Origin: Bacteroidota bacterium
GTDB taxonomy: Bacteria > Bacteroidota > Bacteroidia > Flavobacteriales > Flavobacteriaceae
NCBI GenBank assembly: GCA_021793375.1
Contig: JAJYSY010000006.1
Coordinates: 894 to 64,893 of the forward strand
Length of the DNA: 64,000 nucleotides
Direction of reading: 5' to 3'
Shown: positions 12,423-13,829 of the stretch, one piece after another
Layout: each line of letters starts with the position of its first letter
How positions within the stretch are numbered: the stretch's first letter is position 1
Notes under the pieces: generated by a model
Told to the model about the DNA's origin: nothing
The model's database searches: none
The model's input: only the letters and a program-made list of their open reading frames with translations
Translations under genes and position numbers: made by a program

Positions 12423-13829
12423 TTGTTTTTATCTTTTTTATTTACCTCTTGTCAAAAAGAAGAACTTTTTGATAATAATTCTATAAATGATGATTCTAAT
12501 TTAAGTATAAAAACTCTTAATTATCAAGATGTAAATAATAATGAAAGTTTACTTCAAGAAATTAACAATATTACCATTTCTTCTAATAATAAAATATCTT
12601 TAGGTAAAAATTCAAATACTTATTTTAATTTACAAGATTATGATATTATAACAAGCCACGCTAAAAAAATTATTAGTGAAGAAAAAACATCTTATACTTT
12701 TAGTTTAAAAAACAAAGATGGAAGTTTTCAATCTTCAAAACTTTTTAATATTGTTTTTATTACTAAATCAAACGAAGAAAAATATACTAAATTAATTACT
12801 GTTTATCATTTATCTGAAGAACAAAGAAATGAAATAGAAAATCAAACAACTCCTTCAAGTAGTTTTATTATTTCTTTTCATTTTGTGGATCAAAATGATA
12901 ATATATATCCTCCTTTAAAAACAAATATTAATTCAGTTTATGATGGAGAAGAAAATGGTGATGATGGTTTTTATGATGATGATAATGATGGTCTTTATGA
13001 TGTATTTGATCCAGATGATGGTGGTGGTTCTCGGTTAGAGTTTTTAGATGAAGTAATAATAGAAGTTCCTGAAGATGATTGGACACCTAGATATGGTTTG
13101 CCAGATTGGGGAGATAATGAAGGAGAAGCACCAGGAGCAGATCCTGATTTACCTCATCCAGGAGGGAGTGGTGGCTATACAACTCCTGTTGATTCAGAAA
13201 AAGATCCAGATAACCCTTGTGATTCAATTAGCGAAAAATTTGATAATGAAAATCTTAAAAATGCTCTTAAAGATTTATTTGCTAATATAAACAGTTCTAT
13301 AGAACACGGTTTTTCAGAAAATTCTGATGGTACTTTTTCTAATGGTATTAATGGAACTGAAGGCAATATTCAGCTTCAATTAAATGAAAATACAATAGGT
13401 TATGCACATACTCATCCTACAACTCCTATGTTTTCTCCTACAGATTTCGAAGTTTTTTGGCAATTAATACTAAAAACTCATCACAATCCGAATATCAATC
13501 CTTCTGAAGCTTATGGAATTGTTTTGCATAAGGACGCAAATTATTTATTAAATTTTACCGGAGACTATGAAGACGATTGGGATATTTTTGGAGTTTCGCC
13601 AAAAGGGGATGATATGAGAGAAAAATACAATAAAATATATAGAGAAACATTTGGAGATTTAGAAAAAACTTTTATCTCTTATGTTGAAGAATACATGCTT
13701 AAAGATAACTGTCAGTTCGCCGATTTTTTTGAATTATATGAATTTGAGATTGATGAAAATGGAGAAATTTCAGAATTAACCAAAAAAGAATTAGAAAATG
13801 GTAAAATCAAATCTGACGCTTGTAATTAA
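12423..13829 (+). CDS. Lipoprotein with a C-terminal JAB/MPN (JAMM)-like metallopeptidase motif. The N-terminal signal peptide is only complete when fused to ATG 12316 through the heptamer tract.
   Basis: 468-codon ORF. Lipobox LFTSC (Cys codon 12450-12452) followed by QKEE. D/G/P-rich linker. EHGF (Glu codon 13302) and HTHPTTPMFSPTD (13407-13445) give the E...HxH...SxxD pattern. The frame is open from 12270, but the first ATG/GTG/TTG is TTG 12423. Confidence 0.65.
   Translation: MFLSFLFTSCQKEELFDNNSINDDSNLSIKTLNYQDVNNNESLLQEINNITISSNNKISLGKNSNTYFNLQDYDIITSHAKKIISEEKTSYTFSLKNKDGSFQSSKLFNIVFITKSNEEKYTKLITVYHLSEEQRNEIENQTTPSSSFIISFHFVDQNDNIYPPLKTNINSVYDGEENGDDGFYDDDNDGLYDVFDPDDGGGSRLEFLDEVIIEVPEDDWTPRYGLPDWGDNEGEAPGADPDLPHPGGSGGYTTPVDSEKDPDNPCDSISEKFDNENLKNALKDLFANINSSIEHGFSENSDGTFSNGINGTEGNIQLQLNENTIGYAHTHPTTPMFSPTDFEVFWQLILKTHHNPNINPSEAYGIVLHKDANYLLNFTGDYEDDWDIFGVSPKGDDMREKYNKIYRETFGDLEKTFISYVEEYMLKDNCQFADFFELYEFEIDENGEISELTKKELENGKIKSDACN

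Follow-up and report, generated by a model that had tools for sequence, protein, structure and literature searches.

Two predicted toxin clades of the JAB fold are the closest described relatives of the system considered here. Tox-JAB-1 is a predicted Bacteroidetes toxin clade carried by rearrangement hotspot (RHS) proteins, and its immunity protein Imm65 bears a signal peptide and a lipobox (Zhang et al., 2012; PMC3482391); Tox-JAB-2, which corresponds to DUF4329, is marked by the motif E, H[ST]H, S, D and is also present in iridoviruses and other large DNA viruses (PMC3482391). Here we analyzed a stretch of 64,000 nucleotides of a Bacteroidota bacterium (Flavobacteriaceae; contig JAJYSY010000006.1), hereafter the window, in which a lipoprotein gene (12316-13829, plus strand) with a heptamer repeat in its leader and a JAB/JAMM-like C-terminal domain is followed by two small genes of the Pfam family DUF6705. 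Our analyses suggested that this three-gene cassette probably encodes a phase-variable lipoprotein toxin with exported DUF6705 immunity proteins, the target of which is possibly the cell envelope, and the overall interpretation in a preliminary description of the locus was thereby supported. What looks new is an uncharacterised JAB-fold lipoprotein toxin/immunity family with a coding-repeat switch, while the concept of a JAB toxin is known.

The locus shares with Tox-JAB-1/Imm65 the restriction to Bacteroidetes, a JAB (deaminase-like) fold with E, HxH, S and D, and export via a signal peptide. An immunity protein with both signal peptide and lipobox, such as Imm65, is unusual, and many DUF6705 proteins are alike in this respect. 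However, Tox-JAB-1 forms the tip of RHS-repeat proteins, whereas the window protein is a lipoprotein of ~500 amino acids (aa) devoid of RHS repeats, and no RHS match was obtained, nor any match of the toxin or DUF6705 to Pfam Toxin-JAB1 or Imm65, the latter two even at permissive E-values. The NxxxE feature of Tox-JAB-1 is present in the window protein as N290...E294, with the Asn in only 44 of 147 family members, and no phase variation is described for Tox-JAB-1. The motif E, H[ST]H, S, D is common to our family and Tox-JAB-2, of which secreted versions exist, and the iridovirus, frog virus 3 (FV3) and algal-virus proteins among the structural matches of the window domain belong to virus groups reported with Tox-JAB-2. 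In contrast, the immunity of Tox-JAB-2 is NTF2-like and cytoplasmic and its delivery is by type VI or type VII secretion systems (T6SS, T7SS) or Rhs proteins, whereas the window family combines exported immunity with a lipoprotein carrier; no DUF4329 Pfam match was found among 32 family members.

By architecture only, the cassette can also be compared with myxobacterial SitA/SitI (PMC8546572), which likewise has a lipoprotein signal, an N-terminal escort region, a C-terminal toxin, a downstream immunity gene and no dedicated injection machine at the locus. SitA differs in belonging to another phylum, in acting mostly as cytoplasmic nucleases with cytoplasmic immunity, and in being delivered by outer-membrane exchange that needs TraA/TraB. 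As for the switch, the opa genes of Neisseria carry CTCTT pentamer repeats inside the signal-peptide coding region, which shift a surface protein in and out of frame. The switching principle is identical, namely a tandem repeat of non-multiple-of-three units in the leader coding sequence of a surface protein, but the unit is 5 nucleotides (nt) in opa and 7 nt here, and the cargo is an adhesin in opa and an enzyme/toxin here. In the phylum Bacteroidota, phase variation is familiar from invertible promoters, not from coding repeats.

The JAB/JAMM-like C-terminal domain

The domain is encoded in a 468-codon open reading frame (ORF) at 12423..13829 on the plus strand, which was found as first described, with a TTG start as listed and the frame open throughout, 3' of the repeat. 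Residues are numbered from this ORF.

13215..13829, plus strand: C-terminal domain of predicted JAB/JAMM fold, aa 265-468 plus the stop codon, assigned by AlphaFold2 (AF2), Foldseek, residue conservation and a weak Prok-JAB match

When 1.84 billion cluster representatives were scanned exhaustively with HMMER, 329 proteins were detected at E<=1e-3, 71 of them at E<=1e-10, so that the family, counted as clusters at 50% identity, has at least 329 members. Most of them are 430-520 aa long with Bacteroidota-type lipoprotein leaders; their database names are 'hypothetical protein', and the family is represented in free-living Flavobacteriaceae of marine and soil habitats, among them Tenacibaculum, Bizionia and Flavobacterium. 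Word-indexed searches were seeded with the full protein, the C-domain or a 32-sequence profile, and apart from the protein itself they recovered just one orthologue of 48% identity and one fragment; a scan of GTDB genomes with peptide patterns from close relatives gave no toxin relative. Close relatives of the toxin gene turned up only in Logan read-archive assemblies.

Conservation was counted in a jackhmmer alignment of 151 family representatives with a mutual identity of at most ~50%, with the following results (codons on the plus strand):

C266 (13218-13220): conserved in 145/145
E294 (13302-13304): conserved in 147/147
G296: conserved in 145/147
H329 and H331 (H329-T-H331, 13407-13415): conserved in 148/148
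S338 (13434-13436): conserved in 145/150
P339: conserved in 137/150
D341 (13443-13445): conserved in 150/150
C467 (13821-13823): conserved in 123/123

The E/H/H/S/D pentad was complete in 142 of 147 family rows, and judged by this alignment the motif is not a chance match. Of 148 members, 94 have Thr and 9 have Ser between the two His of HxH. The preliminary description had read a JAMM signature from these residues and proposed their conservation among homologues as a check; codon arithmetic and alignment mapping placed E294, H329/H331, S338 and D341 at the codons it gave, and all five residues proved to be conserved. It had also pointed to an unusual spacing. E294 and H329 are 35 residues apart, and 6 residues lie between H331 and S338, whereas the canonical spacing of H-x-H-x(7)-S-x(2)-D is 7. 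This deviation proved real but not peculiar to the window protein, as across the family the interval spans 6-27 residues and is most often 24. The loop between HxH and S..D thus appears to tolerate insertions in the clade of the window protein, which itself would represent the minimal loop. In addition, the invariant cysteines C266 and C467, one at either end of the domain, suggest a disulfide, and such a bond would in turn imply an oxidising compartment.

Profile searches gave a single curated match for the window domain, to Pfam Prok-JAB, at 16.8 bits against a cut-off of 25, with aa 319-349 on profile positions 63-94. This sub-threshold alignment covers the HxH...S..D segment, motif on motif. 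Across 32 family members there was no match to the Pfam JAB, RadC, Toxin-JAB1 or DUF4329 profiles, and Prok-JAB alone appeared, below threshold. An hhalign comparison with lambda K paired the HxH...S..D motifs of the two proteins with each other at a non-significant score, and sequence searches of PDB returned noise only (alpha-haemolysin and I-DmoI). Because the profile matches are sub-threshold, the JAB/JAMM assignment rests on fold and motif. AF2 gave a confident model of aa 265-468 from a 32-sequence alignment (predicted local distance difference test, pLDDT, 93.5; predicted template modelling score, pTM, 0.91); the model from a 3-sequence alignment was unusable (pLDDT 46.5). In domain numbering, the strand 60-66 bears H65/H67 and the helix 75-90 opens at S74/D77, and with HxH closing a strand and S..D opening a helix, the model would reproduce the placement seen in JAMM enzymes. 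An extra C-terminal helical and beta subdomain occupies model residues ~130-204.

In a Foldseek search of PDB, the first 28 matches were Jab1/MPN chains (Prp8 Jab1 domain, BRCC36/KIAA0157), followed by cytidine deaminases and AF2198; the spliceosome chains of ~2,200 residues among the first 28 we take to be Prp8. Against BFVD, E-values went down to 8e-5 with template modelling (TM) scores of up to 0.53-0.58, normalised by small targets. The named matches there were 'Metalloprotease', 'JAB domain-containing protein' and 'RadC', and iridovirus, FV3, African swine fever virus (ASFV) and algal-virus proteins were included. A deaminase-type active site (H/CxE ... PCxxC) was considered in view of the shared fold and rejected, the conserved residues being those of JAB. 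Taken together, fold and active-site pattern are with high likelihood those of JAB/JAMM, from which metal binding and catalysis may be inferred. The assignment made from the motif was therefore upheld by the near-invariant pentad and by the AF2 model, with JAB/MPN first among the PDB matches; a significant match to a curated profile, by which the preliminary description had proposed to judge it, was not reached. The family appears to be an uncurated JAB-fold clade outside every curated JAB model.

Canonical JAMM/MPN+ proteins (AMSH, Rpn11, BRCC36, AF2198) and RadC-like/phage JAB proteins have the same residue order E...HxH...S..D in the same secondary-structure placement and were the best structural matches of the window domain. 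They differ in a fixed spacing of 7 after HxH, compared with 6 in the window and up to 27 in the family, and in lacking the C-terminal helical/beta subdomain and the terminal Cys pair which the window domain adds. To our knowledge, the characterised JAMM/MPN+ members are all intracellular.

The likeness to these enzymes raises the question of a eukaryotic target, in which case the protein would be a surface deubiquitinase or isopeptidase-like JAMM acting on host ubiquitin-like conjugates or extracellular matrix, phase-variable for immune evasion. Such a role would agree with the characterised JAMM enzymes, which are isopeptidases on ubiquitin-like tails (PMC3482391), with repeat-driven phase variation, which is typical of host-adapted bacteria, and with the eukaryotic-virus proteins (iridovirus, FV3, ASFV) among the BFVD matches. 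However, the family lives in free-living marine and soil genera, its Cys clasp points to an oxidising compartment and not to the host cytosol, the insert of 6-27 residues between HxH and S..D is unlike that of ubiquitin-specific JAMMs, and the partners of the protein are exported bacterial proteins in immunity-like arrays, as shown below. We consider a host effector the least probable of the explanations weighed in this study, with hardly any chance of being correct, and isopeptidase or ubiquitin-like substrates for the domain would be pure conjecture.

Pfam scans of 20 full-length family members left the N-terminal regions unannotated save for two fusions. In P0139, a Peptidase_M23 domain (aa 368-472), of a family of peptidoglycan endopeptidases, lies N-terminal to the JAB-like domain, which gives a hint of a peptidoglycan target. 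In P0100, a Fer2 match (aa 166-233; beta-grasp, ubiquitin-like fold) has the same position and could be a fusion artefact of gene calling.

The predicted leader switch and export signal

The leader and the N-terminal half of the protein comprise the following features:

12316..12340, plus strand: ATG start of the lipoprotein precursor, whose first residues are MKHLLQAI, reading into the 468-codon ORF with 2, 5 or 8 heptamers
12341..12368, plus strand: heptanucleotide repeat GCTACAG x4, a predicted slipped-strand phase-variation switch, OFF as assembled (Tandem Repeats Finder, TRF: period 7, 4.0 copies, 100% match)
12369..12452, plus strand: rest of the signal peptide with n-region NLKQKIFPKQAFR, h-region ISLAVLFLSFLF and lipobox F-T-S-C, from the translated ON variants
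12453..12464, plus strand: Q-K-E-E, mature positions +2 to +5, predicted lipoprotein export signal matching C-X-K-(D/E)2-X
12453..12947, plus strand: Asn/Ser-rich N-terminal domain, aa 11-175, with jackhmmer homology to the N-region of 34/151 family representatives
12948..13214, plus strand: acidic/Gly/Pro low-complexity linker, ~aa 176-264, read from the sequence, with imperfect 3/12-nt TRF repeats at 12955-13002

The GCTACAG tract is a perfect tandem repeat of a unit not a multiple of three in length, and it lies within the reading frame of the signal-peptide n-region. With the 4 copies of the window, the frame of ATG 12316 stops after 19 codons (a 19-aa product, OFF); with 2, 5 or 8 copies it is ON and yields a full precursor of 499, 506 or 513 aa. 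The predicted ON precursor reads MKHLLQAISYRLQ...NLKQKIFPKQAFRISLAVLFLSFLFTS-C-QKEEL, with a basic n-region, a hydrophobic core and a lipobox, and the codon of the Cys predicted to be lipidated is 12450-12452. ATG 12316 appears to be the real start of the gene, correcting the listed TTG, and orthologues likewise start just ahead of their own repeats (MKNLL in L001, MKHF in L004). TTG 12423 was rejected as an independent start, since it leaves only 9 uncharged residues ahead of the lipobox Cys, a leader too short for a signal peptide.

An independent assembly of the same strain (L002, run SRR21203432) had 3 GCTACAG copies where the window has 4, and over 1737 nt the two differed by 0 mismatches and two indels, one of which was the heptamer. 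This is direct evidence of heptamer copy-number instability. The more diverged orthologues have other units at the site: in L001, whose protein is 48% identical, ATG-AAA-AAT-TTA-TTG is followed by GCTCCAA x5, and in the more distant L004 ATG-AAA-CAC-TTT precedes AAGAGCC x3. Each of the two orthologues is OFF in its assembly and gives a proper lipoprotein leader in its ON frame. Three unrelated heptamer units therefore share one codon position in three orthologues that are <=48% identical, which argues for selection on the switch itself and not for decay. The claim of phase variability, made from the window repeat, was in this way borne out and extended to two orthologues. Because the leaders of more distant family members, such as those of Tenacibaculum and Bizionia, are ordinary and free of repeats, phase variation is a trait of the window's clade. 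Two further sequences carry short repeats of other kinds: the relative L003 has (AAAC)x4 in the same leader-coding region (498-513), and the N-terminus of protein P0069 contains the stretch THTHTHTHT, implying a short DNA repeat. Repeat-based switching may thus recur within the family.

The out-of-frame start could also mean that the gene is a decaying pseudogene, its JAMM-like residues being relics that have no current function in this strain. The ATG frame is indeed broken in the window, L002, L001 and L004, and L002 has in addition a frameshift near its 3' end. Nevertheless, the 468-codon frame is fully open past the repeat, every catalytic-type residue is intact, and the frame is in each case interrupted at the same codon by a perfect heptamer tract, built from unrelated units in three orthologues <=48% identical. 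Decay therefore strikes us as very improbable. The frameshift of L002 is due to a T7 homopolymer of the toxin gene (window 13724-13730) that is T8 in this assembly, so that the protein ends at aa 436. The extra T could be an error of assembly or could mark a further site prone to slippage.

The mature N-terminus C-QKEEL and the acidic/Gly/Pro linker were both present as first described. The lipobox context ...LFTS-C-Q-K-E-E-L agrees with the C-X-K-(D/E)2-X definition of surface lipoproteins of the lipoprotein export signal (LES) pathway, an optimal signal that was shown to drive surface exposure in Capnocytophaga canimorsus, also a member of the Flavobacteriaceae (PMC5080379). Position +4 after the lipid Cys was D or E in 65 of the 75 full-length family members with a recognisable lipobox, and 61 of these 75 carried at least two acidic residues in +2..+7, so that an acidic patch after the lipid Cys appears to be a family-wide feature. 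The surface-export signal claimed for the protein thus fits an experimentally defined one, and the lipoprotein would be displayed on the surface or on vesicles. The N-domain, which has no Pfam match in the window protein, possibly has a receptor-binding or escort role.

The guanine plus cytosine (GC) content of the N-domain coding stretch is only ~19-29%, and that of the cassette (19-30%) is somewhat lower than the overall 31.9% of the 64-kb window. In the region 12200-12800, which extends from the promoter to ~400 nt into the toxin gene, GC is only ~19%, compared with 31-36% for the housekeeping genes on either side, and this would agree with horizontal movement of the cassette.

Linkage of the probable toxin gene to DUF6705

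Two small paralogous genes downstream of the toxin gene were part of the preliminary description; both are present and both belong to DUF6705:

13858..14499, plus strand: DUF6705 gene 1, encoding a predicted exported immunity protein of 213 aa with the signal peptide MKNYITIIALLISSFSCIAQQ (Pfam DUF6705 E 8.4e-10)
14527..14564, plus strand: intrinsic-terminator-like hairpin 3' of DUF6705 gene 1 (15-pair stem, T-run)
14634..15269, plus strand: DUF6705 gene 2, encoding a second predicted immunity paralogue of 211 aa, the signal peptide of which ends in TKA-QQ (Pfam E 1.1e-6)
15295..15333, plus strand: intrinsic-terminator-like hairpin 3' of DUF6705 gene 2 (16-pair stem, T-run)
14441..14560 (copy 1) and ~15211-15330 (copy 2), plus strand: ~115-nt near-identical direct repeat, from pairwise DNA alignment

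Gene 1 starts 28 nt past the toxin stop with no terminator in between and is predicted to be co-transcribed with the toxin gene. The two DUF6705 proteins are 41% identical. All DUF6705 proteins examined had a signal peptide or lipobox and conserved Cys residues, and since they are all exported, the protein they counteract must act outside the cytoplasm. No relative of DUF6705 was found in PDB by sequence, and there was no mention of it in the literature searched. The ~115-nt repeat consists of the last ~60 nt of each DUF6705 gene together with its terminator, the gene bodies having diverged, which suggests duplication or insertion of a cassette by recombination. At the DUF6705 3' ends it encodes MILTKQNTIxPLKGATKE, and the extra 12-residue tail NTI(R/P)PLKGATKE is not in DUF6705 of Tenacibaculum and Bizionia.

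At every locus with downstream sequence examined, DUF6705 lay directly downstream of the JAB-like gene: in Tenacibaculum ascidiaceicola (L005), in Bizionia with two copies (L086/L087), and in L089/L090, where the two genes overlap by 14 nt. The NCBI names of these proteins are 'hypothetical protein' and 'DUF6705 family protein'. In the reverse direction, a DUF6705-seeded metagenome scan provided 49 loci, which were searched with hidden Markov models of both families and 38 of which had enough upstream sequence. In 29 of these 38 a JAB-like domain ended 11-82 nt ahead of DUF6705, and the remaining 9 had orphan DUF6705 genes, in L140 as four tandem copies. DUF6705 copies per locus numbered 1 (26 loci), 2 (17), 3 (3) or 4 (3).

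Five loci (L107, L108, L118, L123 and L124) contained, immediately downstream of a DUF6705 gene, JAB-domain ORFs that lack a start codon or N-terminal region; a further DUF6705 gene follows each of these ORFs, and L118 shows a DUF6705::JAB chimeric scar; L137 is another locus of orphan/array-type toxin-immunity layout. Start-less toxin fragments with their own DUF6705 resemble the pattern left by toxin-tip/immunity displacement in contact-dependent inhibition (CDI) and Rhs loci. Furthermore, the syntenic region of a related species (L093; Ga0079225_10000960, 1-8296; 75-79% nt identity; ksgA, arfB, accD, fba) keeps one DUF6705 gene between arfB and accD and has no toxin gene. The small gene immediately 3' of the toxin gene that marks polymorphic toxins is thus present in the window, in L005, L086/L087 and L089/L090, and in the 29 of 38 loci, and orphan C-terminal fragments, immunity arrays and an immunity-only locus are found in related loci; within the window itself, such traces are limited to the second DUF6705 gene and the 115-nt recombination-like repeat. 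The polymorphic-toxin-like layout, proposed at first from the window alone, was borne out by this linkage, the arrays, the orphans and the start-less fragments.

A dedicated inhibitor or chaperone could also be found next to its enzyme, and serralysin-type proteases, for example, have periplasmic inhibitors. The protein might accordingly be a housekeeping JAB-fold peptidase of the surface or envelope, trimming surface proteins of the cell itself, its peptidoglycan or peptides that it scavenges, with DUF6705 as its periplasmic inhibitor or chaperone and phase variation explained by a role as surface antigen or phage receptor. The export signal of the lipoprotein, an exported DUF6705 tightly co-transcribed with it, the lack of a delivery apparatus nearby and the fact that surface structures are the usual subject of phase variation are all in keeping with such an enzyme. 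Yet DUF6705 arrays of up to 4, the 9 orphan loci and the immunity-only syntenic locus are hard to square with a dedicated chaperone, start-less toxin fragments that each have a DUF6705 gene are the hallmark left by displacement of toxin/immunity modules, and orthologous cassettes occupy a different chromosomal neighbourhood in each genome (L001, L004, L005, L086). A housekeeping enzyme is therefore an unlikely explanation, though one to be taken more seriously than decay.

Two side observations concern the genomic background. L093 is also without the second DUF6705 gene and the mscS-like gene of the window (11178-12038), and has an extra 266-aa ORF (1946-2746). The LepA protein of the window (7191-9008) groups with Flavobacteriaceae, with a best identity of 84% to GTDB species representatives (Mesonia, Aequorivita, Salegentibacter).

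Proposed mechanism and biological meaning

We propose the following course of events for a lipoprotein toxin with exported immunity. First, slipped-strand mispairing in the GCTACAG tract would gate translation of the prolipoprotein gene (12316-13829), and the precursor would be cleaved and lipidated at the lipobox Cys. The C-QKEE signal would then flip the lipoprotein to the cell surface, and probably also into outer-membrane vesicles, where the N-domain and the flexible acidic/Gly/Pro linker would present the C-terminal JAB/JAMM-fold domain as a putative zinc hydrolase. Second, the metal would be bound by H329, H331 and D341, with E294 as the general base, S338 as a helper at the oxyanion and C266-C467 as the disulfide clasp of the domain. 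Outside the cytoplasm, this hydrolase may cut an amide bond, of peptide or isopeptide type, in the envelopes of neighbours; peptidoglycan or a wall-linked protein is the leading guess, and the peptidoglycan idea comes from the exported immunity proteins and the one M23 fusion. Third, the exported, Cys-containing DUF6705 proteins would bind and neutralise the hydrolase in the periplasm, and thereby shield ON cells as well as OFF siblings.

Several observations weigh against this reading. At the level of the domain, Prok-JAB scored 16.8-18.4 bits (cut-off 25) in 2 of 32 members with no curated profile significant, NCBIfam, PHROGs and PDB sequence-profile searches gave no match for the domain, and hhalign of the family profile against single proteins, E. 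coli YicR (RadC-like JAB) or lambda K, was not significant. The Foldseek E-values against PDB were only ~1e-2, with TM scores of 0.25-0.32 normalised by the query. The M23 fusion is known from a single family member, and toxin JAB domains were proposed as possible nucleases by Zhang et al. (PMC3482391); nuclease chemistry would not fit an exported immunity protein. At the level of the locus, no secretion or delivery machinery is linked to it, and all four assembled alleles (window, L002, L001 and L004) are OFF, which is also compatible with decay; the chance that four alleles are all OFF is (2/3)^4, ~0.2. Finally, in the C-domain-seeded search the C-domain is constant and the N-region variable, with the window N-domain shared by 34 of 151 representatives. 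In that sample, variation in the family would be allelic within one toxin fold and not a swapping of unrelated toxin heads.

A broader proposal, which we put forward tentatively and hold to be somewhat doubtful as a whole, is that Flavobacteriaceae possess a route of antagonism that needs neither T6SS nor the type IX secretion system (T9SS). In this route, a surface or vesicle lipoprotein would carry the first extracytoplasmic JAB/JAMM-fold toxin against the envelope of a neighbour, DUF6705 would confer periplasmic immunity, and in one clade a heptamer would switch the weapon but not the shield, giving armed and unarmed, uniformly immune cells.

If the toxin reading is true, Pfam DUF6705 would gain a function as immunity protein, and an uncurated JAB-fold toxin family of at least 329 clusters at 50% identity, now labelled 'hypothetical protein', would be defined. 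JAB/JAMM chemistry, so far known only intracellularly, would extend to the bacterial surface and periplasm, and Bacteroidota would have a lipoprotein-borne toxin system with a layout comparable to that of myxobacterial SitA. The locus would also be a clear case of coding-repeat phase variation in Flavobacteriaceae in which the weapon is switched and the immunity constitutive. As the cassette has three small genes only, each of these claims would be open to standard cloning, and a switched weapon with constitutive immunity would make division of labour in bacterial warfare directly testable.

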